Below are positions 7,650 to 23,937 of a stretch of DNA of 64,000 nucleotides, piece by piece (position 1 is the stretch's first letter; each line of letters opens with the position of its first letter). The stretch is from a virus. The notes beneath the pieces are model-generated. The model was not told the DNA's origin and ran no database searches. It saw only the letters and a list, made by a program, of their open reading frames with translations. The stretch spans positions 1-64,000 of the IMG/VR virus record IMGVR_UViG_3300032297_000199. One strand, given 5' to 3'. The position numbers and the translations under genes are program-made.

Positions 7650-7691
7650 AAATTTTTTTACAAATTTTTTACTGTGTGCTATAGACCGGGG

Positions 7692-7741: not shown

Positions 7742-7910
7742 GCGCCAGGGTTCAGGAGTCATTATCTAGGGTTTTAATGCCAATCCAAAAAACCTTTTTT
7801 ACCGCTTTGGCGCTTCGCGCTGGGGGCAGGGCTCTAAGCGGAGGCGCCCAGTTTGCTCAAACGGTTCACAGTCATAGCCGATAAATAATCCATCAACGGG
7901 ATGTTATTAA

Positions 7911-10226
7911 ATGGCTGATTCAGGAGTCTTTCCAAAAACGGGTGGTAGTACAGATCTTATCTATAAAGGTGACTACAACACTCTTCAAACGGCTGTGGCC
8001 GCAGTTAAAACTACCTATTACGGTGTGGCCTGTACTAGCAGTCAGCTAGGGAGTGGATTGCTTACTCCGTCTATTGCAGAATGGAACAATCTCAAATCGG
8101 ATATTGATAACTGTTATACACACATTACTGGTTCTGACAGTGCTGTAACTACTAAATTCAACGGTACTTTAGTTTCTGCTGTGGGCACAAATGCCTATAA
8201 GACTGCCGCAGATTATATCAATACCAACAAGGCCACAGTGTTTGCCAGCAGTCAATTGACCTTGGTCAGTGCAGCGGGCAGCTCTCGTACCAGCGGGTGG
8301 AACACTGCTATTGTACATCAAGTTAGGGTTACATTTGCCAGCAGTTCAGATGCTACTTATTTCTTCAATTGTGGGGGATATTTCCGCATACAGACTGCGG
8401 CTTCAGGTGGCAGTGGCGGAACAAAGAATACCAATTGGGCTTCTGCTATTAACAGTGTGGGCAACTGGGTTTATACCAGTGCTAATTATGGTGCTAATAA
8501 GAGCAATAGTTATGCAGTCAGTGCCTATTCTTCCAGTAGTCTTACCGTAAGCTGTACCTACGAATCAGCAACTTCTTTATTGTTTATGATGTATTTCGTT
8601 GATGATACAGGCGGAAATCCCGATGAAGTCATTGATCTCAGCATCAGCACTGATCTCAGCTACTACAAGAGTACGGGTGGTATTACCAGTCCGTTTCCAA
8701 ATGCTGTGACCAATCTAGCAACACTCGACGGCAGTGGTGGTATTGCTACACCTAGCTACTCTGTGGCGGGTGCAGGATCCACTGTTAACGAAGGTAGTAG
8801 CCTAACATTCAATGTTACCACAAGTAATGTGTCTAACGGAACTACTCTATACTGGACGGTTACCAACGCAGGGGATTTCGGTACTTCAAGTGGATCGTTC
8901 ACCATTAACAGCAATGCTGGATCATTCTCAGTTACACCAACTGCTGATTCAACTACAGAAGGCAGCGAAACATTCAGTGTCAACATTAGAACGGGCAGTA
9001 CCAGCGGAACTGTCGTGGCCAGCAGCAGTAATATTACCATTAGCGATACCAGCACAACTCCCGTGGTTGCAACCTACGGATTTGGAACTATACCCACAAG
9101 TATCAATGAGGGCAGTACAGGCGCATTCAATGTCATCACAACCAATGTTGCCAACGGAACTACCCTGTATTGGACTGCGGAAAGCAATGCAGGCGACTTT
9201 GGTACTTCAAGTGGATCGTTTACCATTACTGGCAACGCAGGCATCTTTTACCTTACACCAACTGCTGATGCTACCACAGAGGGCAGTGAAACATTCACTG
9301 TGGCCATCAGGACAGGCAGCACGGGCGGTACCATTGTGGCCACAAGCAATTCAGTTACCATTAACGATACCAGCTTGACTCCAACCTACTCGTTGTATCT
9401 ACCCTACACTTCAGTTAACGAAGGCAACAGTATTCCAGTTGTAGCCCAAACAACCAATGTGGCCAACGGTACAGTATTGTACTGGACCATCAGCAACGGT
9501 ACTACCAGCAATGCAGACTTCAGTGCTACCAGCGGTTCAGTGACAATCAACAGTGGCAGTGGTCAAATTGACATTACAGCAGTCGCGGACAGCACCACAG
9601 AAGGCAGTCAGACATTTACAGTACAACTTAGAACTGGCAGCACCAGCGGCAGTGTTGTGGCTACCAGCGGCACAATTACCATTAACGATACCAGTGTATC
9701 AGCCACGGCCGCAATAACAACCGATTTGATAGAGTCTAATTACATTGGCGGCTTGGGTGATACAACATTCCAGGCATGGACACAGCTTGCATTCTTAACA
9801 ACTGGAACCTCTCGTGCAACCATAGGTGACAATGGCGCACCTGAAACTAGATCTATTCTTTCAGGTGAATGGCTAACTACTAGCCCCACAGCAGTAAGCA
9901 CTACCACTGCTGGCTTGTTTGACATTGAATTAACTCCGTCGGCAGCAACCTTGACCATTGACGGCGATAAAACAACCTCGGGGCCCATTGGCACAACTAG
10001 AAGAACTTACAGTACAGGTACTAGTTGGAATACCAGAATACAGCTGGGCAACGATGAGATATTCAGATATTTGCTAGTTGAATTGAACGATGGTTCACCG
10101 GGTGGTACTGTTAATCACAATGCAACCGCATATTTTACAGCCACAATTTATCTACACGGAACCAATACTGTTCAAACCAGCACTGCCATAACAATGGTTT
10201 CCAGCGCAGGCTCAATTGGGGTATAA
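7911..10226 (+). CDS. virion structural/fibre protein with three Calx-beta/Ig-like repeats
   Basis: S/T/G-rich; three ~100-aa repeats (VNEG...TLYW...DF...SGS...AD.TTEGS.TF); TAAATA at 7882. Confidence 0.8.
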   Translation: MADSGVFPKTGGSTDLIYKGDYNTLQTAVAAVKTTYYGVACTSSQLGSGLLTPSIAEWNNLKSDIDNCYTHITGSDSAVTTKFNGTLVSAVGTNAYKTAADYINTNKATVFASSQLTLVSAAGSSRTSGWNTAIVHQVRVTFASSSDATYFFNCGGYFRIQTAASGGSGGTKNTNWASAINSVGNWVYTSANYGANKSNSYAVSAYSSSSLTVSCTYESATSLLFMMYFVDDTGGNPDEVIDLSISTDLSYYKSTGGITSPFPNAVTNLATLDGSGGIATPSYSVAGAGSTVNEGSSLTFNVTTSNVSNGTTLYWTVTNAGDFGTSSGSFTINSNAGSFSVTPTADSTTEGSETFSVNIRTGSTSGTVVASSSNITISDTSTTPVVATYGFGTIPTSINEGSTGAFNVITTNVANGTTLYWTAESNAGDFGTSSGSFTITGNAGIFYLTPTADATTEGSETFTVAIRTGSTGGTIVATSNSVTINDTSLTPTYSLYLPYTSVNEGNSIPVVAQTTNVANGTVLYWTISNGTTSNADFSATSGSVTINSGSGQIDITAVADSTTEGSQTFTVQLRTGSTSGSVVATSGTITINDTSVSATAAITTDLIESNYIGGLGDTTFQAWTQLAFLTTGTSRATIGDNGAPETRSILSGEWLTTSPTAVSTTTAGLFDIELTPSAATLTIDGDKTTSGPIGTTRRTYSTGTSWNTRIQLGNDEIFRYLLVELNDGSPGGTVNHNATAYFTATIYLHGTNTVQTSTAITMVSSAGSIGV

Positions 10227-10234
10227 TCTAAACT

Positions 10235-10714
10235 ATGAACATTGACATAGTTCGTCAAGATATTGAACAGTGGATAATGTCTTTCCTTGCGGTCAACAGT
10301 GCCGAGTTTGGGAACATGCCTCCATGCCCGTTTGCTCGCAGTGCTTGGCTCAACGGGCAAGTTTCAGTACGATTGGGCACCGCACCCTTTGATGATTTGG
10401 CCAATCTAACCTGGGATGATTCATTGAGTGTAGTTGTCCTGGCCTATGAAGCTGATTACATGCATCACGAAGATTTTGCCCAAATGGTCAGCAGTGCCAA
10501 TGAGGCGTTGATTCTTAAGGATTTATGGGCACTAGAAGACCACCCAAAAGCTCAAGAAACGGTGGGCAGTGTGACCTTGAATCAAGGAACCTATTCCTTG
10601 ATATTTGTACAAAAACGAAGTGCATTGACGCTGGCTCGTGCCAGTCTAAACAAGACCGACTACTACAAAAACTGGGACTCTGAATACTATCAAGCAGTAA
10701 TAGGCACAATATGA
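10235..10714 (+). CDS. hypothetical protein with PPCPFA motif (DUF1415-like)
   Basis: ORF; CPFA and DHP motifs; family call tentative. Confidence 0.6.
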   Translation: MNIDIVRQDIEQWIMSFLAVNSAEFGNMPPCPFARSAWLNGQVSVRLGTAPFDDLANLTWDDSLSVVVLAYEADYMHHEDFAQMVSSANEALILKDLWALEDHPKAQETVGSVTLNQGTYSLIFVQKRSALTLARASLNKTDYYKNWDSEYYQAVIGTI

Positions 10715-11151
10715 CATATCAGTATGCTCGTATAGATCTAGACCGTACACACTACGGAGCAAGTGTTAATTGGCGCTACGAACGAAGTCCCGATATCGAT
10801 CAGTTGAATCTAATATACAATCAATACTGTACCTATAAAAAGTTTCAGTCTGTCATGCCCATATTTGATTCACAGTACACTGATCCCAAGACAGATGTAA
10901 TTGGCTACTATGATCAAGGAAAAATGGTAGCATTCAGTCTCATGCATCGCTTCGATCATAAGAACGCTCTTTGTGCTCAGTTTGCTTGGACTTATCATAA
11001 TCCTGAATTGAGATTGGGCATTGAAAGTCTTAAAACAGAATGTGCCATCTACAAGGCACGAGGATTTGAGTATCTCTACTTGGATCAAGCTGACGCATAC
11101 AAGCAAGCTCTAGATGGGTTTGAGCTACTGGGACCTGCAATTAAATACTAG
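10711..11151 (+). CDS. GNAT-fold protein resembling the aminoacyl(Arg)-tRNA-protein transferase C-terminal domain
   Basis: MVAFSL...FAWTY...LRLGIESLKTEC...GFEYLYL parallels ATE_C LVAV...YTFYDP...SLG..SIL.EI...G..YVYLG. Confidence 0.6.
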   Translation: MTYQYARIDLDRTHYGASVNWRYERSPDIDQLNLIYNQYCTYKKFQSVMPIFDSQYTDPKTDVIGYYDQGKMVAFSLMHRFDHKNALCAQFAWTYHNPELRLGIESLKTECAIYKARGFEYLYLDQADAYKQALDGFELLGPAIKY

Positions 11152-11168
11152 CTTTAAAAGGAACCAGT

Positions 11169-12716
11169 ATGCCTCAAGTACAAGCATACAACGGTTGGGA
11201 TCAATTAGAAGAAGTATGGCTGGGCGATGTATGGCCCAAGAGTTTTTACGATGACCTAGAACCCACTGTTAGAGACAGTTTTTATCAAATAACCGACATG
11301 ACTCGGGAAGATTTAGACAATATTCAACGAGTATTAGAAGGGCTAGGCGTCAAGGTATGTAGACCTGTAATAGATGAATCTCGCAAAGATCTGTATATAA
11401 ATCCGCAAACTGGCAAACTATACAAGCCCCCTATTGCTGTTAGAGATTTAAATTGTGTGATCGGTAACACTCTTTACTTTGGCGAAACAGCATTGGAAAG
11501 ATGCTGGCGCCCGCACTTGGATCGATATGATCAAGATCCGTCAGTGTCTATTGTTAAGAATTTACCTGTAAGCGGTGCCAATGTAGTTCGATTGGGCAGA
11601 GATATAATCTTTGATCGATTCTTAGAACCAGGATATCATTTTGGTGGTATGACTGATCAAGCAGACAGAAATCGATTACTGGTAAAAGATTTTTCTGTAT
11701 TTAAAAATCAAATTATCAAACAATTTGGATCAGACCATCGAGTACATTATACTGCTAATGGTGGTCACAGTGACGGTTGTTTTATGCCTATCAAGCCCGG
11801 TGTTGTTTTGACAACTCGTTACTTTGAGGATCACGATACTTTCTTTCCTGGATGGACCAAAGTAAGATTAGATGATCCTACTTACCACGAACACAATACC
11901 TGGCCCACTGGAAGACCACCTAGATGGTTTTTACCAGGAATTAACGGGCCTGTGTTCAATGAATATGTAGAACAGTATTGTCCAGAATGGATAGGCAATT
12001 ATCAGGAAACCTTTTTTGAAGTAAATGTTCTAGTGGTTAATCCTACAACTGTACTTTGTATAGGCACACACGAAAGTTTGTTTAACAGCCTAAAAGAAAT
12101 GGGCATTAATTGTATAGTGGCTCCGTTTAGAACTAGAACATTTTGGGATGGCGGAATACACTGTAACACTCTAGACATTCGACGAAACGGCACCAAAGAA
12201 GATTTGTTTCCTAGAAGGGGCGATAACGGTCTTGGCATTGTTCTAACAGAACTAGCTGACAATTTTAATAAGGTGTATGCCGGACAATTACCAATCAGTA
12301 CTGCTGCTAAGACAAAAGTGTTTAACTTCAATGATGAAAATTGGAGAGAGCATAAAACTCCTGAAAATAACAAAGTTAATAACAGTATGAACATATATCA
12401 CATATGGTGTGATAAAGCTGAAGGAATTACAGATGCCGCCTGGGTAGAAAAAATGAATCAGTTTTTTAACAAGCTGGTAAACGATAAGAAAATGGTCTCT
12501 TATCGTATTACAAGATGCAAGTTAGGATTCCGCAGTATAGCCGATTTACCAGAGTGGCATATCATGTGCGAGTTCCTTAGCTTACAACAGTTAGATGATT
12601 GTTTCGGGACTGTGGCGTTGAAGCAAGGTCAGTTAGAAGAACAACATCAGGGCTTCAATCAGTTTGTAGGACCAAACATACACCACGCTCTGTATAGAGA
12701 CTGGCCTGATAAGTGA
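11169..12716 (+). CDS. amidinotransferase (glycine/inosamine-phosphate amidinotransferase family) fused to a C-terminal DUF6614-like domain
   Basis: N.WD.LEEVWLG, RD, HSDG and FWDGGIHC.TLD.RR pentein motifs including the catalytic Cys; extra ~110-aa domain from MNIYHIWCD. Confidence 0.8.
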   Translation: MPQVQAYNGWDQLEEVWLGDVWPKSFYDDLEPTVRDSFYQITDMTREDLDNIQRVLEGLGVKVCRPVIDESRKDLYINPQTGKLYKPPIAVRDLNCVIGNTLYFGETALERCWRPHLDRYDQDPSVSIVKNLPVSGANVVRLGRDIIFDRFLEPGYHFGGMTDQADRNRLLVKDFSVFKNQIIKQFGSDHRVHYTANGGHSDGCFMPIKPGVVLTTRYFEDHDTFFPGWTKVRLDDPTYHEHNTWPTGRPPRWFLPGINGPVFNEYVEQYCPEWIGNYQETFFEVNVLVVNPTTVLCIGTHESLFNSLKEMGINCIVAPFRTRTFWDGGIHCNTLDIRRNGTKEDLFPRRGDNGLGIVLTELADNFNKVYAGQLPISTAAKTKVFNFNDENWREHKTPENNKVNNSMNIYHIWCDKAEGITDAAWVEKMNQFFNKLVNDKKMVSYRITRCKLGFRSIADLPEWHIMCEFLSLQQLDDCFGTVALKQGQLEEQHQGFNQFVGPNIHHALYRDWPDK

Positions 12717-12731
12717 CCTAGTAAATATCTC

Positions 12732-12935
12732 ATGGAAACTAAAACAAGAACTATAGTTAGAATGTTAACCTATCGGTTAACTGCGTGGTCGTTTACTATT
12801 CTGTGGACTTACATGTTCACGGGCAATATTGCCAATGCTACAGGATTTGCCACAGCTTTGCATATCTTATTAAGTATAGATTATTACATCCACGAACGAA
12901 TTTGGTTAAAGATCAAATGGGGTAAAACTCAATAA
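12732..12935 (+). CDS. DUF2061-like small membrane protein
   Basis: ET..RTIV...TYR...YYIHERIW..IKWG signature. Confidence 0.8.
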   Translation: METKTRTIVRMLTYRLTAWSFTILWTYMFTGNIANATGFATALHILLSIDYYIHERIWLKIKWGKTQ

Positions 12936-12937
12936 CC

Positions 12938-13708
12938 ATGATAGATATTGAATCTTATAAAATATTAGGTAATCTACCTAAACATATTAAATGGGAATGG
13001 TCGGAAACAATTGTTAAAATTTTCTTTAATGTGTTTTCTAAAAATATCCCTTACGGCGATGCTATTGACCTTGGTGCAAATTATGGCATACATTCGTGGA
13101 ATCTAGGAAATATTGTTAAAAAGACAGGCAATACTCTAGTTGCTGTGGAGCCTGATCCAAGATGTTATGAATTTTTAAATGATGTGCTCGACACAGGTAA
13201 TTTTAAAAGTATATTAATTAAGAATCCAATATCCTATGCAGGAAATATATCAAAATTTCGATTGCATCCGCAAGTACAGCTTAGTAAACTAATCGAAGAT
13301 AAACTAGAGCATAAAGAAAGTGACATAGAAGTACAAACTTTATCTCTTGATACTATTGCCGCACCTTACATACCGAAATATATTAAAATTGATGTTGAAG
13401 GGCAAGACATTAACGCAGTTAAAGGCGGTCAAAATACTATCATAACTCATAGACCAATCATTTCAACTGAATGGAGCACATCTTATTCTACAGGTGATCA
13501 AATTTGGTATTACCATTTTTTTAAGAATTTAAATTATAAAATGATAGACTTTTTAGGGAATGAATATGATGCAGAGCATTGGATGAGCGACTGGCATCCT
13601 TATTGGAATAGATTTTTAGTACCTGCAGAACACTGTAGGCTTTTTGAATTTAAGAAACAACTTGACTATATGTTCCAGCATCATGGAATGGAAAATATAC
13701 TTAAATAA
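12938..13708 (+). CDS. FkbM-family SAM methyltransferase
   Basis: DLGANYG, AVEPD and KIDVEG motifs. Confidence 0.88.
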   Translation: MIDIESYKILGNLPKHIKWEWSETIVKIFFNVFSKNIPYGDAIDLGANYGIHSWNLGNIVKKTGNTLVAVEPDPRCYEFLNDVLDTGNFKSILIKNPISYAGNISKFRLHPQVQLSKLIEDKLEHKESDIEVQTLSLDTIAAPYIPKYIKIDVEGQDINAVKGGQNTIITHRPIISTEWSTSYSTGDQIWYYHFFKNLNYKMIDFLGNEYDAEHWMSDWHPYWNRFLVPAEHCRLFEFKKQLDYMFQHHGMENILK

Positions 13709-13728
13709 ATATGTGATTAGGAGATATT

Positions 13729-14133
13729 ATGGCTGTTACTGTACCTACGGGTTATACACTTACTTGGATTATCAGAAATGCGGAATTAATTCGTAGCATC
13801 ACCGTCGGTGGTGTGGAATTTACGGATGTAGTTTGCAACCTCACTTATAGATTGCGAGCTATGAATCAATATGGGCGCGGTATTGCTATAGACAGTCAAG
13901 TTGAAATACCTATTGATGCAGTTGATCCAGAAACATTCATCGAATTTACATCGATGACTCAAGAACAGGCAGCTACATGGTTAAAAACACAGCTAGGCGA
14001 AACTATTGTTGAACAGCTAGAAACTCGTGCTCTTGCACAGTTACAAAATCCAGATCATGTTTATCTACCGGAAAAAGGCATGCCTTGGTATCATCAAGAT
14101 CCCTACGATAGCATGCCCCGTCAATATCCGTAA
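13729..14133 (+). CDS. fibre-associated small protein (paralogue of three genes at 53.6-55.0 kb)
   Basis: Shared pattern VV..(L/V/I).(Y/W/F)...F.(P/E)(F/Y)..LT.E....W...PW; AGGAG RBS. Confidence 0.7.
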   Translation: MAVTVPTGYTLTWIIRNAELIRSITVGGVEFTDVVCNLTYRLRAMNQYGRGIAIDSQVEIPIDAVDPETFIEFTSMTQEQAATWLKTQLGETIVEQLETRALAQLQNPDHVYLPEKGMPWYHQDPYDSMPRQYP

Positions 14134-14144
14134 ACCCCTAACCG

Positions 14145-14182
14145 GGTAAACTCGCTAAATAAAGCAATAAAGTGAGTTTACT
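14145..14182 (+). promoter_or_regulatory. late promoter TAAATA within a hairpin covering the translation start region
   Basis: GGTAAACTCGCT/AGTGAGTTTACT arms; TAAATA 14156-14161; ATG 14186. Confidence 0.65.
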
Positions 14183-14185
14183 GGA

Positions 14186-17100
14186 ATGACTGTCAATACG
14201 AATACACTTACCGCCTACATTAACAACATTGATGCAGCCTTTCCCAGAAAGGGACAGGACAACCCTAGTTCGGGATTTAGGGATAACTTTACTGCGATTA
14301 AAAACTCGCTAGTTACTAGCGGAGAAATACTAGTAAATTTAGAAGCAAATAAGATTAACAAAGGTACAACAAGTACCAGTCGTGAATCAAATGCTAACGA
14401 TTACAGTAATAATTTAATTGGCGCTGAGATTAAAAATGTACAATTAAGCGATTGGACTCAACGAACTAAAGTACACGGTATTATCAGCGGTACTCAATAT
14501 CTTAAGTGGTCAGACGGACCTATACATACATTACAGCCCTGGAATACAGGTACAGTAACAGTTAGAATTGGTGGCACAACTAGCACTGATTTTATGCCGG
14601 CAGATCAATATGCTGCTATGCGTGTTTATATTACTGTGGCTAATACTGCTAGTTCGGTTACCTGGGGTGATTTTGCAGACATTACAAATGCCAGCAGATT
14701 AGTTAAATTTGCTAACGGTGTAATGAAATTTGATGCTACAGGAACATACGGAGTTGAAGTAGTTAGTCTAACAGGCGACAAATTTGAATTATTTGATCTA
14801 GGAGTAAGACAAGTAACTTCTTCTACTGGTGTAACATTACACCCGGTAGCTTCTTCTGGCGATTATAATGCGTTATCAAATAGGCCTGGTTTAGCTACAA
14901 CTGCAACTACTGGACTTGTTCAAATTGGCTACGGTCTAACAGCTACTAACGGCATTGCTAGTATTGACACTGCTACTATTGCACAAATTTCTAACATTGT
15001 CACTGCTACCTACAGCACCGCTGGTGTTGTTAAAATTGGCAGAGGATTGTTTATTTCCTCTACAGGATCTTTAGCAGTTAATGATGCAACTCTTGCTCCT
15101 GCTACTACAAATACATTAGGTAGAATTATTGTAGGCAGTGGCCTAGCTATTACTACTGGCGGAACTTTATCTATAGTCGGCGGAGTAGTTGGTGCTACTG
15201 GTTTAACTGGAGCAACAGGTCCTGCAGGGGCAACAGGAGTAACTGGTGCTACTGGAGAAGGTGCCACTGGAGTAACTGGTGCCACTGGACCACAGGGTGC
15301 AACTGGCGCAGGTAGTACAGGTGCTACTGGACCAACTGGTGCCAGTGGAGTACAAGGTGTTAGAGGATTCCAAGGAGCGTCAGGACCTAAAGGTGATACT
15401 GGTGCTACTGGTGCAAGCGGCCTAGAAGGATTGCCAGGTCCAACGGGTGCTACTGGTGACAAAGGTGACAAAGGAGCTACTGGATCAGGAGCAACAGGAT
15501 CAACAGGAGCAACTGGTATTCAAGGTGCTACTGGTTTACAAGGAGCAACCGGACCCCAAGGTATTGCTGGTGTATTTGCAGGTCAAGGCGGAACAGGTGC
15601 TACTGGTCTTATAGGAACTACAGGTGCAACAGGCTTACAAGGAGCCACAGGTGCAGGAGCCACAGGTGCTACAGGAAATATTGGTGCAACAGGTGCTGTA
15701 GGATCTACAGGATTAACAGGCTCTACTGGTAGTGGAGCAACAGGTGCTGATGGAGCCACTGGCGCTACTGGAGCAACAGGACCAGAAGGAGCAACAGGAC
15801 CAGAAGGAGCAACCGGCGCTGATGGAGCAACAGGTGCTACTGGAGCACAGGGTGCTACAGGTGAAACTGGTGTTCGAGGTTTTCAAGGTTATAATGGATC
15901 AACTGGTGCCACTGGTTTAGACGGAGCAACAGGTCCCGACGGGTCAACTGGTGCTACTGGAAATGTTGGCGCAACTGGCGCTCAAGGTGAAATTGGTGCT
16001 ACAGGTGCAACCGGCGCTACTGGACCACAGGGTGCTACAGGTAGCGGGGCAACAGGTGCCGATGGTGCAACTGGCGCAACCGGCGCAACTGGACCACAAG
16101 GTGCAACCGGCGCAGGCGCTACAGGTGCAACCGGAGAAGGTGCTACAGGTGCAACTGGACCACAGGGTGCAACTGGTAGTGGGTCAACTGGTGCAACAGG
16201 TATAGGTAGTACTGGTGCTACTGGACCACAAGGACAAGTTGGTACTACTGGTGCAACTGGTCCACAAGGACAAGTTGGATCAACGGGTGCGCTTGGTGCA
16301 ACTGGACCTGAAGGAGCTACAGGTGCAACTGGTGCAGGAAGTACAGGTGCTACAGGACCACAAGGTAATCAAGGTAATCCTGGTGCAACTGGTGCTACTG
16401 GATCAGGTTCAACTGGTGCCACTGGCGCAATTGGATCAACGGGTGCCACTGGCGCAACTGGTAATATTGGATCAACGGGTGCAACTGGCCCGGTAGGTGC
16501 TACTGGAGTAAGCAATGTACCAGGTGCAACTGGTCCTAGTGGTGCAACGGGTGCAACAGGATTTAGTATTCCTGGAAGTACAGGGGCAACTGGTGCCACA
16601 GGTGCCACTGGCGGTCCTGGAAGTACAGGAGCAACTGGGCAATCAGGTAATGTAGGCGCAAGTGGTGCAACTGGTGCTACAGGAAGCCCTGGAGAACCTG
16701 GTGCAACTGGTGCTGGATCTACTGGTGCTACAGGCGCAATCGGAGCAACTGGTGCCACAGGTGCCACTGGCCCAGCTGGTGCTACTGGTCCGTTTGGTCC
16801 GGCTGGAACTATAACAATTAATACTGTTACTGCAATTAGCTGGACTGGTACTGCTAGTGTTGTTAACATTGGATCTACTGGAAGTGCTATATTAAACTTC
16901 TTTATTCCATCAGGTGCACCAGGTGCTACTGGATCAGCAGGTCCTACAGGAGATACAGGTGCTAGTGGTGCAACAGGTGCATTTGGATCAACAGGTGCAA
17001 CTGGGCCACAAGGTAATCCAGGTGCTACAGGCGCTGCCGGACTAGACGGTCTAGCTGCTGCCCAAGGTGCAACTGGTGCTACAGGACCATTAGGAGCTAC

Positions 17101-18790
17101 TGGATTCCCAGGAACAACTGGTGCTACTGGACTTCAAGGCGATACAGGCGATACAGGCGCTACCGGCGCAATTGGATCAACTGGTGCTACAGGTGCAGGT
17201 GCTACTGGAGCCACTGGTCTAAAAGGTCTAGGCGGATTAGAATATCTAGTCAATAGCACCGTTTCCGGACCTACCGGTAACTTTGCAGACGGAACATTGA
17301 GATTTAACTCAGTAAGCACTAGTTCATTAAACACAATGTACATAATTGCCTCTGATGTTAATAATATTAACCAAGGCCCGTATATTACTTCTTGGGATGA
17401 TAGATCTCCTACTTACGGTACAATCACAGTCACTGGACAAACAACTGGTACAACCTTGTTGTTAAACATGGCTGACGCTATTACAGTTACTACCGGTGCA
17501 AGAACTGAGTACTCAATACCAGTAACATGGATTTCTGGTACAATACCTAGTACTGCAACTCAAGTTGCGATTACATTTACTAGAGATGGTCAATACGGTG
17601 CTACTGGTGCATCAGGTGCTACTGGACTTGGTTTTAGAATGGATAGTGTGACCACAGTGTCATTAACAACTGGTACTAAGACATTTACCGTTAACCAACT
17701 TGGTGCTTATGCCGCAAATATGCGTGTCAGAGCAAGTGTTAACAACGGAGTAAATCCTGACTTCATGGAAGGTCGTGTTACTACAGTTAACACCACAACT
17801 CCGTCACTTACAATGAGTGTTGATTTTACTACTGGTACTACCGGTGCTAGCTACAGTAATTGGGCATTTAGTCCTACTGGAGAAATTGGTGCCACCGGAT
17901 TCCAAGGTATTCAAGGTAATGCAGGCGCAACAGGTCTTGGATACTTGATTAACAGTACTTCAGCAGTAGCAATGGCAACAACTGGTACTAAAACATTTGT
18001 GGTTGATCAGTTAGGTGCTTACATCCCTAATATGCGTGTCAGAGCAGGTGTTAACAACGGAGTAAATTCCGACTTCATGGAAGGTCGTGTTACTACAGTT
18101 AACACCACAACTCCGTCACTTACAATGAGTGTTGATACCGCTACAGGCTCGATCGGAGTTACTTACAGTGTTTGGTCTTTTAGCGCAGCAGGAGAAATAG
18201 GTGCACCTGGACTTATGGGAGCAACTGGTGCAGTAGGAGCAACTGGAGTAGGTTATGATGGTGTAACTTCTAATAGTACAGTTTACCTTGATGTTACTCA
18301 AGACGCTAGGTTTACAGTTAACCAACAGGGTGCATTCAAGAATGGATCGCAAGTAAGGGCAGTTGCACTTGATTCACTCAGTACAGGGTCGTTCATTGAG
18401 GGATATTTGATTCCGACCGGAACTAACTGGACAATTATTCCTAATAATGTATTCCCTGCAAATAGTCCTACCCTAAATTACAGTAATTGGCATTTTACTA
18501 TTGGTGGAACATTTACTACCTCAACAGTATTTCCTATTAGAAGTTTTAGCACATCAATGTCTACAAGTACATCAACTGGTGCTATCCAATTAACTGGCGG
18601 TATTGGTATGGGTGGTAGTTTGTTTGTCGGACAATGGGTTGTTCCTCAGAATGTTAGTTCTGCAACCATTAAAAACTATATTGGTACTCCAACAGGTGCC
18701 ACGGTATTCTTAACAGGTGCCGGATATAACAAACCTGCATATTGGGATGGTACTAAATGGTACACTATGAACGGTAACGCTCTATATTAA
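14186..18790 (+). CDS. collagen-like (Gly-X-Thr) virion fibre protein
   Basis: Long GAT/GST/GPT triplet tract between a globular N-terminus and repeated beta-rich C-terminal domains. Confidence 0.88.
17717..18136 (+). repeat. 108-bp near-identical direct repeat inside the collagen gene (17717-17824, 18029-18136)
   Basis: Three mismatches seen by eye; offset 312 nt, in frame. Confidence 0.85.
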
Positions 18791-18803
18791 CGCCTAGGTT
18801 GCA

Positions 18804-18844
18804 TTGTGTACCGTAAATATGTTAAACTATTTTACGGTACACAA
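18804..18844 (+). promoter_or_regulatory. 14-bp perfect inverted repeat overlapping late promoter TAAATA
   Basis: TTGTGTACCGTAAA / TTTACGGTACACAA; TAAATA 18814-18819; ATG 18847. Confidence 0.75.
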
Positions 18845-18846
18845 AT

Positions 18847-19524
18847 ATGGCAACAATCACAAAAGAAAAATATCAAGAACACGAGTTAATTCCAAACATT
18901 GAATATTGTTTAGAACAAGCTCTTTTAGACAATTCTGAAATTCCAGAATACAGTCTACAGATTCCTGGAATGAGCGGAATCAAGTATAGACACTTTATTA
19001 ATAATCTACTTCGCAGTTTAGAAAATCCAAAGTACTTAGAAATTGGTACATGGAAAGGATCTACTCTATGTGCTGCCATTGGCGGAATCGAAGGCGTAAC
19101 AGCCTTAGCAGTTGATAACTACGGTTATGGTGGCGCAACAGAAGATGAAGTAAATGATAATGTTAATCAAGTAAAAAGCAACTCATCAAACATTACAATC
19201 TTAAATCAAGACTTTGTAGATTTTGATTTTGCAGCTCACGGTAAATTCGATGTATATCTTTATGACGGAGGTCATACACAAGAAGAACATTATGATGCTA
19301 TTGTTAGAGCAGTCCCTGCATTAGAAGATATTTCCATTATTATTATTGATGATTGGAATAATCACGATAACACTGTGTCGCATATTAAAACAGGAACTTA
19401 CGACGGTTTTAAAGATGCAGGCTTAGAAATTCTTTATAAGTTTGAAGTTGAGACCGGAGTTAACCCTCCATTCCCAAGCGAGTGGCACAACGGCTACGGC
19501 GTATTTTTAGTTAAGAAATCATAA
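18847..19524 (+). CDS. class I SAM methyltransferase (Methyltransf_24-like)
   Basis: YLEIGTWKGS, YDGGH and IIIDDW motifs. Confidence 0.85.
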   Translation: MATITKEKYQEHELIPNIEYCLEQALLDNSEIPEYSLQIPGMSGIKYRHFINNLLRSLENPKYLEIGTWKGSTLCAAIGGIEGVTALAVDNYGYGGATEDEVNDNVNQVKSNSSNITILNQDFVDFDFAAHGKFDVYLYDGGHTQEEHYDAIVRAVPALEDISIIIIDDWNNHDNTVSHIKTGTYDGFKDAGLEILYKFEVETGVNPPFPSEWHNGYGVFLVKKS

Positions 19525-20294
19525 TGACAACTTTTTCACATTCAGGCACCTATGGTGATCTAATTTACTCATTGAGTATTACAAAACATCTCGGAGGTGG
19601 GGATTTTTATCTTCGTCTAAACAACATGGACGAAATGGCTCGACGCACTTTTGGTCCACAAGCAACAGCTGGAGATCATGCTGGCGAGATGACAGAAGCT
19701 CAATTCCACGGACTAACAGAATTTATGAAAAGCCAACCGTACATTAACAGTTGGAACATTTATAATGGTGAACACATTGACTATGCGCTAGAAGATAGCG
19801 GCAAAGAAATTGTTAAGCAACAAGGAAATTATACATTTGCTTATGCTCGGTCTGTCGGAGTCGATCCGGCTCAGTACTACAAGGAATTTATGTTAGAACC
19901 TTGGCTAACTGTAAAGAATCCTATTAAGGTACCCGGAAAACCTATTGTAGTTAATCGAGTCAATAGACACTTGTACGGGTGCGATCCTACTGCTAAGAAC
20001 TGGCAAAATTTCTTTAATCGTGGGCTTGCAGAGTACGGAGTGTATGTAGGTAAACCTGAAGAACACGCATGGTTTGAAGACTTCTTTAAAGTTAAGATTC
20101 AACATTACAGAACATATGACATTTTAGAATGTGCTCGTGTTATTGCAGGTGCTGAACAATTTGTCGGAAGTCAAAGTATGTGTCTAAGTCTAGCAATTGG
20201 TCTAGGTAAAACATATTTTTGTGAGTGCCGAAAAGACTTGCCCTTACAAAACAATGAATGTTATTTTGTGAGGCCAAATGGACACTACATGTAA
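19524..20294 (+). CDS. GT9-like (heptosyltransferase-like) glycosyltransferase
   Basis: N-terminal HSGTYGDL; C-terminal ARVIAGAEQFVGSQS...LAIGLGK. Confidence 0.65.
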   Translation: MTTFSHSGTYGDLIYSLSITKHLGGGDFYLRLNNMDEMARRTFGPQATAGDHAGEMTEAQFHGLTEFMKSQPYINSWNIYNGEHIDYALEDSGKEIVKQQGNYTFAYARSVGVDPAQYYKEFMLEPWLTVKNPIKVPGKPIVVNRVNRHLYGCDPTAKNWQNFFNRGLAEYGVYVGKPEEHAWFEDFFKVKIQHYRTYDILECARVIAGAEQFVGSQSMCLSLAIGLGKTYFCECRKDLPLQNNECYFVRPNGHYM

Positions 20295-21072
20295 ATCTTT
20301 TAGCCATAGCGGTACGCTTGGCGATGTATTAACTAGTCTGTGTATTGTAAAGATCCTCGGTGGCGGGGATTTTTACTTGAAGCTAAACAATATGGACAAA
20401 ATGATTCAAGAAAAGTTAGGCTGGCCTAATGCTGGTGTTCATAGCGGTCGTATGACTCAGAAAGACTTTGATATGTTAGAGCCTCTAATGAAAAGTCAAA
20501 GTTTCATCAAGAGCTTCCAAGTATGGAACGGCGAACAAGTTACAAACGAGTTTGAAGAAGTATGTAGACATCACCAAGCAAGCGGTTGGTGGCCTAGGAA
20601 TTTTAGTAATCAATATGCATCTAGTCAAGACATAAATCCAGAAGAAAATTTTGAACAGCTACAGCAACAACCTTGGTTAGAGTGCAAAGATCCTATTAAG
20701 ATTCCAGGTAGGCCAGTTGTTATTAGTCGTAATGAAAAATATCTAGACGGTGCTCCAGTGTATAATCCAATCTGGAAAGAGTGGATTGATTACGGATTAG
20801 CTGATAGATGTGTATTTGTTGGACATCCTAGCGAACACGCATGGTTTGAAGATCTATACAAATGTGAAGTTGATTATTATCCCACTGAAGATATGTTACA
20901 CCTAAGTCGAGTGTTAGCAGGATGTGAATTGTTTATAGGCAATCAAAGCATGCCGGGAACAATGGCTTCGATTGCCTTAGGTAAGACAAGTAGGATTGAG
21001 TTAAGGAAGAATGAAACCCAAACTAATAATGAGTTCTTCTATCCTTATCGTCTTAATGTTAGCTATTTTTAA
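20278..21072 (+). CDS. GT9-like glycosyltransferase, tandem paralogue
   Basis: HSGTLGDV, LGGGDFYL and SRVLAGCELFIGNQS; colinear with the upstream gene. Confidence 0.65.
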   Translation: MDTTCKSFSHSGTLGDVLTSLCIVKILGGGDFYLKLNNMDKMIQEKLGWPNAGVHSGRMTQKDFDMLEPLMKSQSFIKSFQVWNGEQVTNEFEEVCRHHQASGWWPRNFSNQYASSQDINPEENFEQLQQQPWLECKDPIKIPGRPVVISRNEKYLDGAPVYNPIWKEWIDYGLADRCVFVGHPSEHAWFEDLYKCEVDYYPTEDMLHLSRVLAGCELFIGNQSMPGTMASIALGKTSRIELRKNETQTNNEFFYPYRLNVSYF

Positions 21073-21571
21073 GTGACTCTAAAATAGCAATTACTTCGTC
21101 GAGAGCAGGTTGAGGATTTTTATATACAACACGAATAGAATGACCGCCTGCGTCTTTCCATTGCTGACAATTATCTAATCTATCGTCTACTAATATATCG
21201 CCTGCTGTACAGTGACTTTGTTTATCAGTGCTATATGGTCCAAACATTACAGGAATATCTGGATATCTATTTTGCACCCATAGCATCTTGTCATAGAATG
21301 CCCATGGAAAGTCATTTCCCTTAGGAATCGCAGTTAAAAACTTTAGTTGCCATCCATGATTATCTCTAAATTTTCTTGCATTGCCTACTAGTGAATCTGC
21401 CCAAGGTGTTTTCGGTAAGTCTTTAAACCAGCGTTTATTTTCTCGAATTTTAACCCAGTCGTCAAATGCCCAACGATGTGAATCTGGATCCTTCTCGAAA
21501 CCAATAAACTCTTTTGCGGCCTGGTCGAAGTCTGCGACTACGCCATCCATATCTAAATAAAATGTTTTCAT
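21059..21571 (-). CDS. HAD-family 5'(3')-deoxyribonucleotidase (start moved to MKTFYL)
   Basis: DMDGVVADF motif I, LVDD motif; TATAAT 6 nt before the ATG. Confidence 0.85.
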   Translation of the reverse strand: MKTFYLDMDGVVADFDQAAKEFIGFEKDPDSHRWAFDDWVKIRENKRWFKDLPKTPWADSLVGNARKFRDNHGWQLKFLTAIPKGNDFPWAFYDKMLWVQNRYPDIPVMFGPYSTDKQSHCTAGDILVDDRLDNCQQWKDAGGHSIRVVYKNPQPALDEVIAILESLKNS

Positions 21572-21599
21572 AATGATATTATACATTCTTTTTTGAAAA

Positions 21600-21629
21600 A
21601 GAAAAAGTGGGACTATGCCCACTTTTCTC
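21600..21629. terminator. bidirectional intrinsic terminator
   Basis: AGAAAAAGTGGG-actatg-CCCACTTTTTCT. Confidence 0.75.
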
Positions 21630-21798
21630 TGTACTTTGCTAATGCAAGCTGCCTTGCAAGAAACAATCTCCAACGAATATGTTCTGGTAATTCTTCATCG
21701 TCATTGACAATTTTGATATCCCGAACTAATTCTGGACGGCGATAAGCAACATGCAGATCTAATTCACCTGCAATATCGTCATCGCTGTCATCGAGATC
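21613..21798 (-). CDS. possible small acidic/basic protein; start unclear
   Basis: Protein-like 3' part of track ORF 21613..22008 with no ATG of its own. Confidence 0.4.
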   Translation of the reverse strand, partial: DLDDSDDDIAGELDLHVAYRRPELVRDIKIVNDDEELPEHIRWRLFLARQLALAKYREKWA

Positions 21799-22042
21799 AC
21801 TTCTTAGCTGGAGTTGGCTCAGCAGCCTTTTTGTCGTCCTTTTTAGCAGGAGCGGCTTTTGCGTCACTGCTTTTAGTGTCGGCTTTTGCAGCCGGTGCGC
21901 TGGGTGCAGGAGTACTAGCGGCAGGTGCTGGTGCTGTAACAGCAGGTTTGGCATCGGCCTTCTTTTCTTCTTTCTTAGCAGGTTCTGCGGCGAAAGCTGT
22001 AGCGGCAAACATAGTTGCGATTAAAGTTGCAATCAATTTCAT
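21797..22042 (-). CDS. secreted Ala/Lys/Pro-rich low-complexity protein (acid-shock-protein-like)
   Basis: Signal peptide MKLIATLIATMFAATAFA, then AKP-rich; AAGGA RBS. Confidence 0.8.
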   Translation of the reverse strand: MKLIATLIATMFAATAFAAEPAKKEEKKADAKPAVTAPAPAASTPAPSAPAAKADTKSSDAKAAPAKKDDKKAAEPTPAKK

Positions 22043-22122
22043 GATAAAGTTTCCTTTTGGTTAATGTAAGAAGAATTATTCCCCTACATATATATAACGC
22101 GATAGCCCGGAAACTAGTTGAC

Positions 22123-22809
22123 TTAGATACTTAATTTTTTATCAAAAAGATCGCCAATTGTGTCCATTAAATCTCCGAGCTTGCCGGAGTTTCTAAGACT
22201 CTTATATGTCAAATTTTGAATACTAAATTCCCCACCGGATGCTAGTCCTACTTTACGATAGTCGGCTAACATTTCTCTTACTTTTCTACAAACTTCTAAG
22301 TTACGGCTTTTAATAGCGTGATTGATAACTTCATCCCACTTTTTAACTTCTGCTTGTACAGCACTTTTATTATAACCAGTATTATCGGATTTTGGAGGCT
22401 TTGTCCATTTTCTACTTAGGATAGAGTATGCAGAACTAACAGCGGGTTCTGCTAAATCTTCTACATAGAGTTCAACTGGTATTCCGTGTACTTTAATGTC
22501 TCGCTGTTCTTTCCAATACTTTCTTTTAGTATCGAACAATTCGCTTACAGTCATTTCACATTCGACTTCACTGTAATCTACAATTAGATGTAGATCTAAA
22601 TCAGAATATGGAGAATAGTTATAGTTTGCCTGACTTCCAGAAATTATTAAGTCTTTAACATCAACAGGAACTTCTAAAAAATCGTAAAACTCCCTGGCAA
22701 TATTCAATAATGCAACTGTAACATCAGGCCGTAGATCTTTGCCAGCCCACAGTTTAGGATTAAGATCTTGGTGTATTTCTACAGGAGGAACGAATTCAAA
22801 AATATTCAT
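22123..22809 (-). CDS. Pol-beta-superfamily nucleotidyltransferase
   Basis: GS-x-DLD motif (ISGSQANYNYSPYSDLDLH) and a third acidic residue in VELY. Confidence 0.8.
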   Translation of the reverse strand: MNIFEFVPPVEIHQDLNPKLWAGKDLRPDVTVALLNIAREFYDFLEVPVDVKDLIISGSQANYNYSPYSDLDLHLIVDYSEVECEMTVSELFDTKRKYWKEQRDIKVHGIPVELYVEDLAEPAVSSAYSILSRKWTKPPKSDNTGYNKSAVQAEVKKWDEVINHAIKSRNLEVCRKVREMLADYRKVGLASGGEFSIQNLTYKSLRNSGKLGDLMDTIGDLFDKKLSI

Positions 22810-22817
22810 ATCTATAT

Positions 22818-23348
22818 TTATTTTAACAAGTGATCAGGTGTCTGAGTAAAATAGCATGTCATACTAATACGAATATCTTTGTTAGCAGTAAACACACAAT
22901 GTGGCAACTCTGTGCGCCACACTACCGGTTGTTTAAGTTCAAATTGATCTATCTCTTCATACCTTGTATACATTAAATCCCAATATACAACCTTACCGCT
23001 TTTTCTAAGAATAGGTTTTCCTTTTGTAAATTCGTAAAGTTTAGTAACTGATCCTATACAATTAAGTATTGGCCATTGTATCCTAGCAGTAGGTGCTAGA
23101 TAGTCTAAATGCACCGTTGAAGTATCCGTGTCTTTTAATATAATAAAGGCAAACTGAGTAGGGACTAGTTCCAGCGATGCAAAGTAATCTTTTAGTTCAG
23201 GAACATAAGTTAATACTTTATTAGCGTCAAATTCGTGATTCCAAAATTCACACTTCTCTAAAAAAGTAGTCTCGTTTTTAATATAAGAATATAACTTTTC
23301 TGTTATTAGTTCCCAATTATTACATTCTAAATACCTGAAATTTGTCAT
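22818..23348 (-). CDS. hypothetical cupin/2OG-Fe(II)-oxygenase-like protein
   Basis: HxD (VHLD) ... H (PHCV) ... R (RISM) spacing. Confidence 0.5.
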   Translation of the reverse strand: MTNFRYLECNNWELITEKLYSYIKNETTFLEKCEFWNHEFDANKVLTYVPELKDYFASLELVPTQFAFIILKDTDTSTVHLDYLAPTARIQWPILNCIGSVTKLYEFTKGKPILRKSGKVVYWDLMYTRYEEIDQFELKQPVVWRTELPHCVFTANKDIRISMTCYFTQTPDHLLK

Positions 23349-23352
23349 ACCA

Positions 23353-23372
23353 AATATTTACTGGTAAATATC
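23353..23372. promoter_or_regulatory. back-to-back divergent late promoters
   Basis: ATATTTAC-TG-GTAAATAT palindrome; each TAAATA is 6 nt from an ATG. Confidence 0.75.
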
Positions 23373-23376
23373 CCGT

Positions 23377-23937
23377 ATGATAGGTTCTTTGAATTTAACA
23401 GGCCATATTTTAGCATCTCAGCCCAAGGGTCCTGACTCGTTATTTACGAGGGGTATTATAGTTGTAGCCAAGCACAATGACGAAGGTGCTTGGGGTCTCA
23501 TGGTCAACAAACCGACCACAAGGATTTCTCTTAGCCAAGTAATGGCCTCTACTGGAATCGCATATTCTGGACAAGAATCAATATATGTCGGTGGCCCTGT
23601 TGACACGCATCGAGTGCATGTTATTCATTCTTTAGATTGGCAAAGTGCTGGGACAGTGCCAGTTACTTCTGAGATAGGAATTACCAGTGAAATGTCTGTA
23701 ATGTTAGCAATTGCTGGCGGAGAAGGACCTAATTTGTTTAGGACTTGTCTAGGAGTTACTGGTTGGGCAGCCGGTCAACTAGACGGAGAGTATAAAGGAT
23801 TACCTCCGTGGAAGCCGGAACAACGATGGCTCGATGCTCCGGCTACAATTGATGCTGTGTTTAATCTAAACAATGACGAACAATGGGAAAAGTGTATCGA
23901 CATTGTAGCATCTAGTAAAGTATCAGCTTGGTTTTAA
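23377..23937 (+). CDS. YqgE/AlgH (DUF179) family protein
   Basis: H..EGA.GL.VNKP, GGPV and G..GW..GQL..E motifs. Confidence 0.85.
   Translation: MIGSLNLTGHILASQPKGPDSLFTRGIIVVAKHNDEGAWGLMVNKPTTRISLSQVMASTGIAYSGQESIYVGGPVDTHRVHVIHSLDWQSAGTVPVTSEIGITSEMSVMLAIAGGEGPNLFRTCLGVTGWAAGQLDGEYKGLPPWKPEQRWLDAPATIDAVFNLNNDEQWEKCIDIVASSKVSAWF

Follow-up and report, generated by a model that had tools for sequence, protein, structure and literature searches.

The first 64,000 nucleotides (nt) of the IMG/VR virus record IMGVR_UViG_3300032297_000199, called the window in the following, carry between positions 10,235 and 21,072 a block of genes on the + strand, in the centre of which a collagen-like fibre of 1534 amino acids (aa) is encoded (Table 1). 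The fibre gene is followed by a single unit of overlapping frames behind one TAAATA element, which codes for a methyltransferase and for two paralogous glycosyltransferases (GTs) with a predicted GT9-like fold. On balance we regard it as rather probable that these enzymes serve in the decoration of some phage surface protein or glycan. That the fibre, the GT9-fold enzymes and the methyltransferases form a late virion-decoration unit with the fibre itself as the acceptor is a narrower assumption, to which we give somewhat less than an even chance. The promoter-like signal which the GT unit shares with the fibre and tail genes may be taken as a sign, though not as proof, that modified sugars are put on appendages of the phage itself. 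An earlier note on this DNA had already proposed a decoration system; the fibre, the GT9-fold enzymes and the methyltransferases keep their place in it, whereas its amidino- and guanidinyl-transferring part does not. All open reading frames (ORFs) named in that note are present, and all lie on the + strand.

The phage and its collagen-like fibre

The window is the first part of an 82,344-bp record with a CheckV completeness of 23%. Scans with the PHROG profiles found a tail sheath, a tube, a sheath stabiliser, a large terminase (TerL), UvsX and a gp32-type single-stranded DNA-binding protein (SSB) in the record and, on the replication side, a DnaB-like helicase, a primase and further helicases. 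These virion and replication genes confirm the phage origin that had been assumed for the block. Because of them, and because TerL shares 55% identity with the terminase of the Pseudomonas jumbo phage PA5oct, we assign the record to an uncultured, distant T4-like jumbo myovirus, known from metagenomes only, of which it is a fragment. A megablast of the region against 50,697 isolate phage records gave no match. Identity with the 'moraphage' lineage was considered and dropped, as the available sections of PMC12619734 contain no link to this phage and do not mention PA5oct.

The fibre has 222 Gly-X-Y triplets in 21 runs of at least four triplets, the longest run comprising 34, and thus the long uninterrupted Gly-X-Y stretches of PF01391-type collagens. 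Ala is found at the X position of 113 triplets and Thr at the Y position of 115 (52%), so that the Thr-rich collagen described in the earlier note is confirmed by the counts. The idea that Thr at Y is a sign of glycosylation did not hold, since by itself it is no evidence for a modification.

A profile of the N-terminal domain (about the first 200 residues) found 3793 cluster representatives. Among the best 150 of these, the match to the anchor positions mostly begins at the very N-terminus of the protein, although these proteins differ widely in length; others match solely the later repeat positions, inside long proteins. The AlphaFold2 (AF2) model of this domain shows a long helix and a beta-sandwich with a predicted local distance difference test score (pLDDT) of 81.3. 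The five best PDB matches of the beta-sandwich are all phage appendages (Z 8.3-7.6, 91-98 residues aligned), with unrelated helical matches at Z ≤5.3, and Z values near 8 count as borderline according to the tool's own note. The top match is the N-terminus of CBA120 TSP4 (Z 8.3, root mean square deviation (rmsd) 3.0, 96 aligned); the others include a baseplate protein of a Klebsiella phage, a tailspike of an Acinetobacter phage and a capsid spike of a Pseudomonas phage. In BFVD the matches are phage proteins as well (E 2e-17 to 1e-5), including the names 'Tail fiber protein', 'Major tropism determinant N-terminal domain' and collagen repeat. In one of the distant loci discussed below (L069), a 588-aa protein which has a weak tail-collar match begins with the same anchor domain. 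Names and Pfam domains of ten members each from two sets of the anchor-domain family (nine of them common to both) gave nothing informative.

Behind the anchor, the profile positions 225-330 occur in multiple copies per long protein, and residues 274-330 match the 'tail fiber protein' of the Ralstonia phage phiRSL1 (tblastn E 5e-4). This is the single match of the N-terminal part among the isolate phages, weak and partial with 17% coverage. At the other end of the stalk collagen segments lie between the distal domains (triplet runs 1135-1149, 1232-1252 and 1336-1356), and the C-terminal domain is presumably the distal, binding end; with tblastn the C-terminal part matches no isolate phage. From the ESM Atlas came low-confidence leads alone, one of them to the N-terminus of T4 gp9/10 (0.91); for the distal part of the fibre they lead to phage collagens only. 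Judged from its domains and from the model of its anchor, the collagen protein is predicted to be a virion appendage, either of the tail or of the head.

The GT9-fold paralogues

The paralogues a and b share 42% identity (E 7e-72) and are the sole two members of their family in the 82-kb record. Searches against Pfam (E≤0.1), PHROGs, NCBIfam and the PDB (by phmmer and by profile) gave no match for them, and the GT9 model PF01075 matches nowhere in the whole record even at E≤10. The AF2 model of GT a, built from 48 homologues, reaches a pLDDT of 94.9. Compared by VIA-align over residues 1-256 it is most similar to the GT9 structure 3tov (Z 14.3, rmsd 3.3, 213 aligned), followed by WaaC (2h1f, Z 14.2), WaaF (1psw, Z 13.8) and TibC (4rap, Z 12.0), with the next unrelated GT-B families at Z ≤8.2; Foldseek finds WaaC with E 1.8e-6. 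Both paralogues are predicted to have a two-Rossmann GT-B fold of GT9-like type.

With WaaC, WaaF and TibC the phage enzyme shares this fold over 256 residues (rmsd 3.3-3.6, 205-219 aligned). A Gly-Asp pair after the first strand may be a further correspondence. In the phage family Gly11-Asp12 is invariant (48/48 members, with paralogue b in the same alignment) and sits between the strand 2-6 and the helix 10-22. In the four E. coli GT9 enzymes WaaC, WaaF, WaaQ and WaaU Gly12-Asp13 is invariant, Asp13 being the catalytic base in WaaC. The phage GTs differ from WaaC, WaaF and TibC in being ~60-90 residues shorter and acidic, in the missing PF01075 match and in the loss of the residues Asp261/His266. 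The name GT9-like, as used in the earlier note, is therefore justified for the fold but not for membership in the family, because the structures match while the sequence models and the donor motif fail.

The family is nearly confined to phages. In the protein collection 398 homologues with E≤0.001 were found among 697 candidates scored, and in IMG/VR there are 402 confirmed stretches. No homologue was detected by tblastn (E≤1e-3) in the 50,697 isolate phage records, and in the genomes of 185,579 species only six distant cellular relatives (27-31% identity) exist. These six (L139-L144) come from Planctomycetota (Tepidisphaeraceae, Zavarzinella), from a metagenome-assembled genome (MAG) of Methylomirabilota and from a betaproteobacterial MAG.

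Gene neighbourhoods of the GT9-like family

Neighbourhoods were counted in the best 79 loci of the 402 IMG/VR stretches, the ORFs being called by a simple longest-ORF rule. The 92 GT9 genes in them collapse to 39 clusters at 70% identity, and the labels given to neighbours (GT34-like, GT17, DegT and so on) are those of single-linkage BLAST clusters with one Pfam-scanned representative each.

In the 14 closest loci the order of genes is the same: the fibre, sometimes a Methyltransf_24 gene, one or two GT9 genes, and then a converging nucleotidase gene with the replication genes. In 12 of these 14 the gene immediately 5' of the GT9 gene encodes a collagen of 128-223 triplets, and the remaining two end at a contig edge. 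In two distant lineages (L064 and L069) a collagen, here of 1509 or 2039 aa, is once more encoded near the GT9 gene, at a distance of two to three genes and on the opposite strand. The co-occurrence of GTs and collagens which the earlier note had suggested as a check is therefore found in relatives. One of the closest loci, L012, additionally has a gene for a radical SAM/SPASM protein of 353 aa (11555-12616, - strand) between GT b and the nucleotidase, which the window does not have.

In 22 further loci the GT9 gene divergently adjoins genes for proteins of up to 2024 aa. Such giant neighbours contain many immunoglobulin (Ig)-like domains (Big_12, Big_9, He_PIG or Cadherin-like) together with subtilase, kumamolisin-pro or Hint modules. 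In L035, L041, L062, L078, L086 and others they measure 1363-2024 aa and have, for example, eight Big_12 or six He_PIG domains and a C-terminal Hint; the combination of Ig-like domains with subtilase or pro-kumamolisin and Hint is unusual for phage proteins. Taking collagen fibres and multi-Ig proteins together, the next non-GT9 neighbour has at least 900 aa in 15 of the 39 clusters. In the complete 322-kb relative G002 such a size is reached by 21 of 343 genes (6%), which as background yields a binomial P of 3.7e-9, a value that overstates the significance because the 39 clusters share ancestry and are not phylogenetically independent.

Most of the remaining loci are glycan islands with genes for GT34-like and GT17 enzymes, a DegT aminotransferase, a nucleoside diphosphate (NDP)-sugar 4,6-dehydratase and a HAD-nucleotidyltransferase, and with Methyltransf_23, Methyltransf_24 and FkbM genes around the GT9 gene. 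In L023-L059, L075 and L079 the islands lie on one strand and include methyltransferases of three types and at most two genes of the GT9-like family. Because the family sits in such islands, a glycan-building role is indicated for it, and from its gene neighbourhoods we regard it as a putative glycan-building enzyme whose genes are repeatedly found with both methyltransferase types of the window and with giant proteins of surface type, and which often carry the promoter-like signal of the fibre gene.

The TAAATA element

With 36 copies against 76.1 ± 8.5 expected, TAAATA is depleted in the window and is the rarest of its 15 permutations. Nevertheless 25 of the 36 copies are followed within 40 nt by the ATG of an ORF of at least 60 aa, compared to 4.06 ± 1.8 for random positions and to 9-26% of the copies for the 14 permuted hexamers. 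TAAATA is a genuine start-linked signal. The five copies listed for the block in the earlier note (11142, 12722, 13702, 14156 and 18814) are at exactly these positions, and one more, overlapping copy is found at 13706.

The virion genes marked by the element are those for the sheath, the tube, the terminase, two PHROG 'virion structural' proteins and both collagen proteins. In the block it precedes the genes for the 771-aa Calx-beta protein, the amidinotransferase, DUF2061 (followed by FkbM), DUF7936 and Methyltransf_24. The DnaB, primase, helicase and UvsX genes of the window are without it. The same picture is obtained for relatives, where genes touching a locus edge, tblastn hits starting after query residue 25 and duplicate upstream regions were omitted. 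Counted in distinct upstream regions, TAAATA is present at 7/7 fibre genes, 7/8 genes for relatives of the 771-aa protein, 4/5 Methyltransf_24 genes and 42/73 GT9-like genes, at 0/15 DnaB, 0/15 primase and 0/4 deoxynucleoside monophosphate (dNMP) nucleotidase genes, and at 337/1362 of all ORFs of at least 100 aa. An AT-rich, -10-like element 5' of structural and not of replication genes is what characterizes the T4-type late promoters. By analogy with these, the TAAATA class may be read as the class of late genes. In 7000-23500, Sigma70-like promoters are about as frequent as expected (41 against 39.3). Among the public sequencing runs, none was listed as holding RNA of 11100-21099.

The distances from TAAATA to the ATG fall into two classes, one of 4-7 nt, which leaves no room for a ribosome-binding site, and one of 17-36 nt (examples are the copies at 39606, 38002, 44386, 22815, 23355, 23365 and 12722). 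If transcription starts just downstream of the element, the short spacing would lead to leaderless or near-leaderless mRNAs. Directly after the fibre stop codon (window 18790-18850) there is an inverted repeat of ~8-9 bp with the TAAATA of 18814 in its loop. One hairpin may thus be the terminator of the fibre gene and at the same time carry the promoter-like element of the methyltransferase-GT unit.

The distribution of the element bears on the question whether the substrate is DNA. GT-B enzymes could glycosylate modified bases of the phage, with the methyltransferases acting on the sugar or the base. In 22 of the 79 loci the GT genes do border on those for replication (dNMP nucleotidase, DnaB, primase), HAD-nucleotidyltransferase fusions are encoded near GT9-like genes in 11 loci, and phage GT-B enzymes which add heptose or 3-deoxy-D-manno-octulosonic acid (Kdo) to DNA are described in the available part of bioRxiv 2023.12.21.572611. 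In the window, however, the GT unit lies on the strand opposite to the replication genes and converges on them, and the signal found at GT9 genes is missing at all DnaB and primase genes examined. Each of five related large records has one full-length thymidylate synthase match (333-355 bits), which looks like an ordinary ThyA and is more than 50 kb away from the GT loci. A search for Tet/JBP in these five records found nothing; it is uninformative, as the control matched nowhere either. The family is acidic, and the T4 beta-glucosyltransferase is not among the structural matches listed. We consider DNA hypermodification very improbable.

Proposed decoration of the fibre and its alternatives

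The mechanism that we propose is centred on the 1534-aa fibre, which would be a trimeric-type appendage composed of an anchor domain, tail-fibre repeats, a collagen stalk of ~690 residues and repeated distal domains. The GT unit would be expressed late in infection, under the same TAAATA signal as the fibre. Before assembly the soluble GTs would use cytoplasmic nucleotide sugars for the O-glycosylation of Ser/Thr residues of a virion surface protein, the two paralogues adding successive or different sugars. The adjacent fibre would be the most probable acceptor. O-methylation of the glycan would be carried out by the Methyltransf_24 enzyme and probably also by the FkbM enzyme encoded upstream, and the amidinotransferase module would be a neighbour with a separate function.

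Several points weigh against this mechanism. The function is assigned from gene context alone, and the late timing of TAAATA genes is an analogy with T4, whose full consensus TATAAATA is not enriched (3 copies against 5.6 expected). TAAATA is also found 5' of the non-structural genes for the nucleotidyltransferase-like p228 and the AlgH-like p186. Membership in GT9 fails at the sequence level: when 48 members of the phage family were compared with the four E. coli GT9 enzymes by hhalign, a probability of 47.7% (E 1.9e-4) was obtained for the C-terminal domain alone, the N-terminal domains were left unaligned, and the invariant donor motif Asp261/His266 of WaaC corresponds to non-conserved Gln/Ser. 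The closest structures WaaC and WaaF act on the lipopolysaccharide (LPS) core, and the protein heptosyltransferase TibC scores lower than WaaC (Z 12.0 compared to 14.2). The 82-kb record has no gene for the synthesis of nucleotide sugars (no Epimerase, no NTP_transferase). About 24 of the 39 GT9 clusters are without a giant neighbour, and the 39 clusters share, as mentioned, a common ancestry. Finally, because the GT9 gene also neighbours DnaB or primase genes in the 22 loci named above, in L028-L033 even on their strand, the synteny of fibre and GT9 genes could be an inherited genome layout.

The structural neighbours would lead to the alternative assumption that the enzymes alter the LPS core or another cell-surface glycan of the infected cell, which might block the adsorption of progeny or competing phages to infected cells and debris. 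In line with this, WaaC, WaaF and a GT9 member are the best structure matches (Z 13.8-14.3), the homologue P0055 is labelled in its source as an ADP-heptose:LPS heptosyltransferase, and with no sugar-nucleotide pathway in the record host precursors would serve. The family nevertheless differs from such enzymes in its acidic character (median isoelectric point (pI) 5.76, none of 48 above 8, compared to 9.0 for WaaC) and in the loss of the WaaC donor motif. It is nearly restricted to phages, with 402 viral stretches against the six distant cellular relatives. Furthermore, the signal at the GT genes is that of fibre and tail genes, and giant proteins of the fibre or Ig-rich kind are repeatedly encoded next to them. 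A host-envelope function is therefore quite unlikely in our view. The heptose-pathway isomerase SIS_2 (GmhA-type) is absent in 5/5 related records, which has no bearing on the use of a host pool. With this absence, and with no Epimerase or NTP_transferase in the record itself, the idea of a phage-encoded heptose pathway was rejected.

The acceptor could also be another product of the phage than the fibre, i.e. the capsid, the tail tube, the 771-aa Calx-beta protein, the second collagen protein (Table 1) or a free or lipid-linked glycan. The adjacency of the fibre gene would then reflect genome layout only. The clusters without a giant neighbour and the many self-contained glycan islands would agree with such an acceptor. 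Relatives of the 771-aa protein are encoded divergently beside GT9-like genes in 10 of the 79 loci (tblastn), and in mycobacteriophages the glycans sit on capsid and tail tube, as reported in the available sections of PMC12619734. Against it speaks the constant order of fibre and then GT genes in the phage's own clade (12 of 14 loci, the other two being cut by the contig end), and that the distant loci L064 and L069 pair fibre and GT9 gene again in a different orientation. We judge another acceptor to be unlikely, though it is to be kept in mind when the fibre is discussed as the decorated protein.

Methyltransferases and the amidinotransferase module

Both methyltransferases are well recognized by their family models. 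The FkbM gene product scores 51.6 bits with PF05050 (cut-off 22.7) and 56.8 with TIGR01444 (cut-off 37.7), and the Methyltransf_24 gene product 34.8 bits with PF13578 (cut-off 26.3). In the PDB the FkbM protein matches 2py6, annotated as 'Methyltransferase FkbM', with E 0.003, which is of no use for the assignment of a substrate; the Methyltransf_24 protein matches no PDB sequence. Genes of the FkbM type are found within four genes of GT9-like genes in 5 of the 39 clusters and those of the Methyltransf_24 type in 6 of 39. The predicted co-occurrence of methyltransferases is therefore seen at the level of the types. It is not seen for the FkbM gene of the window itself, which has no tblastn match (E≤1e-5) in any of the 79 GT9 loci.

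The 515-aa enzyme encoded upstream matches amidinotransferases of the PDB by phmmer (HsvA 5.9e-7, SxtG 8.5e-7, StrB1 2.1e-5 and AGAT 2e-4 to 3e-4, over residues 281-346). Its N-terminal motif and the catalytic residues His200-x-Asp202 and Cys332 are collinear with the motifs of these four enzymes, and no Pfam amidinotransferase model matches it. Homologues were found in 33 viral loci; in two of these, which are the contigs of L011 and L012, a collagen or GT9 gene accompanies them. Conversely, two of the 79 GT9 loci have an amidinotransferase. In L091, L092 and L111 the genes for the 159-aa protein, the 146-aa protein and the amidinotransferase are again found together, with neither a fibre nor a GT9 gene beside them, and in seven loci the amidinotransferase follows directly after DnaB or primase. 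From these gene contexts the amidinotransferase module (10235-12716) appears to be an independent, mobile module with a function separate from fibre and GTs. Its place in the decoration system, as claimed in the earlier note, is thus given up. The 'guanidinylated glycan' is without support and was rejected, because the amidinotransferase does not co-occur with fibre or GTs. Set apart from the fibre, the module is a subject of its own.

The amidinotransferase and DUF6614 are one ORF of 515 aa in the window and two adjacent ORFs (467 and 110/112 aa) in the closest relatives (L011 436-2171, L012 2882-4625), which points to an event of either fusion or splitting. Over the module loci as a whole (the window, L091, L092 and L111-L121), fused as well as separate forms are found.

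The low recurrence of these neighbours raises the question whether the block is a functional unit at all. Where the late genes meet the replication genes there might simply be a variable 'moron' region, a collecting place of unrelated accessory genes, in which the neighbours share nothing but a promoter type. In fact, the amidinotransferase, FkbM, DUF2061 and DUF7936 genes are each found beside the fibre in few or no other loci, and the gene content 5' of the fibre varies among the close relatives L015, L018 and L020. The pairing of fibre and GT9 genes is, however, the one stable feature of this variable region, it comes back in unrelated arrangements, and GT9 genes are also paired with genes for giant proteins that are not homologous to the fibre. 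That the genes do not form a unit is in our opinion improbable.

Relation to known systems

To our knowledge, glycosylation of phage virions has been shown for a few mycobacteriophages only and hinted for one jumbo phage. Mycobacteriophages carry glycans on capsid and tail tube (Freeman 2023 as summarised in PMC12619734; this source and the other papers cited in this section are used as far as their text was available). They resemble the phage described here in having GT genes beside structural genes; there the glycans sit on virion proteins, and because of this the modification is cytoplasmic and precedes assembly (PMC12619734). The acceptors there are C-termini of capsid and tail tube subunits of siphoviruses with Gram-positive-type hosts, here the candidate is a collagen fibre of a jumbo myovirus. 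The GTs of the two systems are also unrelated, those described here being a phage-restricted family of GT9 fold which is accompanied by methyltransferases and known from genes alone.

In the Xanthomonas jumbo phage XacN1 at least two glycoproteins of the virion were detected, and its genome codes for two GTs (PMC5852040). It is likewise a jumbo myovirus with T4-like replication genes and two GTs; in the available text its glycoproteins and the responsible enzymes are not matched to each other (PMC5852040). The GT9-like family, in contrast, has no homologue in any isolate phage record by tblastn. For phage DNA GTs such as the T4 alpha- and beta-GT and those of Pyle et al. (bioRxiv 2023.12.21.572611) the similarity lies in the GT-B fold, in the HAD or nucleotidyltransferase partners at times and in the position near replication genes. 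According to Pyle et al. they act with a HAD-like bifunctional enzyme and a cytidylyltransferase. They further occur with enzymes forming 5-hydroxymethylpyrimidines and resemble T4 beta-GT (bioRxiv 2023.12.21.572611). In contrast to them, the GTs of the window have the promoter class of structural genes and GT9 structural neighbours, and the thymidylate synthase and Tet/JBP searches mentioned above yielded no partner of this kind.

Virus-encoded glycosylation of collagen is known from Mimivirus, which encodes collagen-like proteins (L71 and others) together with an enzyme glycosylating them (PMC9614988). Its L230 combines a lysyl hydroxylase with a GT domain of 27.7% identity to human GLT25D1 and attaches glucose to hydroxylysine, and the fibril glycans of giant viruses contain sugars methylated by virus-encoded methyltransferases (PMC9614988). 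The phage system differs from Mimivirus in its Gly-Ala-Thr-rich collagen, in the GT9-like GT-B fold and in the bacterial host. No hydroxylase was found among the ten block proteins scanned against Pfam. The BclA filament of the Bacillus anthracis exosporium is reportedly a Gly-X-Thr collagen with O-linked oligosaccharides in the collagen region and a methylated terminal sugar. BclA is a bacterial spore protein, to which the phage fibre is likened by its Gly-X-Thr collagen only; the BclA glycosylation genes are, as far as we know, not GT9-like. A full-text literature search found no paper on the GT9-fold phage family or on a glycosylated collagen-like fibre of phages.

As a tentative proposal, which we would not put as high as the decoration of the single fibre described above, the compact, phage-restricted GT9-fold family may be the core of a late virion-glycosylation toolkit in uncultured aquatic jumbo myoviruses, coating collagen fibres and giant Ig-rich appendages with O-methylated glycans. 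If this is true, the glycans would be made from the phages' own glycan islands or from host precursors, and the coat would be to bacterial viruses what the glycosylated fibril layer is to giant viruses and the BclA nap to Bacillus spores. For aquatic Gram-negative-type hosts it would change the view of fibre stability, host recognition, resistance to grazing and proteases, and antigenicity in large phages. It would also give a function to a family of hundreds of 'hypothetical' proteins and offer compact (~256 aa), soluble GT-B enzymes for glycoengineering. Because in their promoter class the GT genes go with the fibre and tail genes rather than with those for replication, the question of glycosylation is directly testable.

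Further features of the block

The coordinates of the genes and of the parts of the fibre are given in Table 1.

Table 1. Genes of the block, parts of the fibre and further features of the window.
Feature	Position	Strand	Basis or remark
771-aa Calx-beta-containing protein	7911..10226	+	Pfam Calx-beta 1.1e-9; TAAATA at 7882
159-aa protein	10235-10714	+	First ORF of amidinotransferase module
146-aa protein	10711-11151	+	Weak ATE_C/GNAT-like match
515-aa amidinotransferase-like enzyme, DUF6614 at C-terminus	11169-12716	+	PDB matches; Pfam DUF6614
67-aa DUF2061 membrane protein	12732-12935	+	Pfam; TAAATA at 12722
FkbM-family S-adenosylmethionine (SAM) methyltransferase	12938-13708	+	Pfam 1.5e-13, TIGR01444
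134-aa DUF7936 protein, directly 5' of fibre gene	13729-14133	+	Pfam 2.9e-11
TAAATA	14156..14161	+	24 nt 5' of fibre ATG
1534-aa collagen-like fibre	14186-18790	+	Pfam Collagen 2.5e-67
Fibre residues 1-220, N-terminal anchor domain, helix and beta-sandwich	14186..14845	+	Profile, AF2, structure matches
Fibre residues 221-332, short tail-fibre-type repeats	14846..15181	+	tblastn phiRSL1; profile
Fibre residues 333-1019, Gly-Ala-Thr-rich Gly-X-Y stalk with short interruptions	15182..17242	+	Pfam, triplet counts
Fibre residues 1020-1534, about three repeated domains of ~100 aa and C-terminal domain	17243..18790	+	Sequence, triplet runs
225-aa Methyltransf_24 class I SAM methyltransferase	18847-19524	+	Pfam; phrog_1458; opens three-gene unit
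GT9-fold glycosyltransferase a, 256 aa	19524-20294	+	Start overlaps methyltransferase stop codon
GT9-fold glycosyltransferase b, 264 aa, paralogue	20278-21072	+	Overlaps gene a by 17 nt
Second collagen-containing protein, 2283 aa	55011-61862	-	82 triplets, 45 Thr at Y; TAAATA upstream

Besides the fibre, the 771-aa Calx-beta protein may be a second surface protein encoded here. The second collagen protein has no N-terminal similarity to the 1534-aa fibre. Two ORFs on the strand opposite to the fibre gene (15010-15471 and 16369-16869) are by-products of the collagen repeat. The DUF7936 protein is similar to the product of a 125-aa ORF (53931-54308) over just 37 residues (pairwise E 1e-4), and the position of its gene 5' of the fibre is kept in the relative L012.

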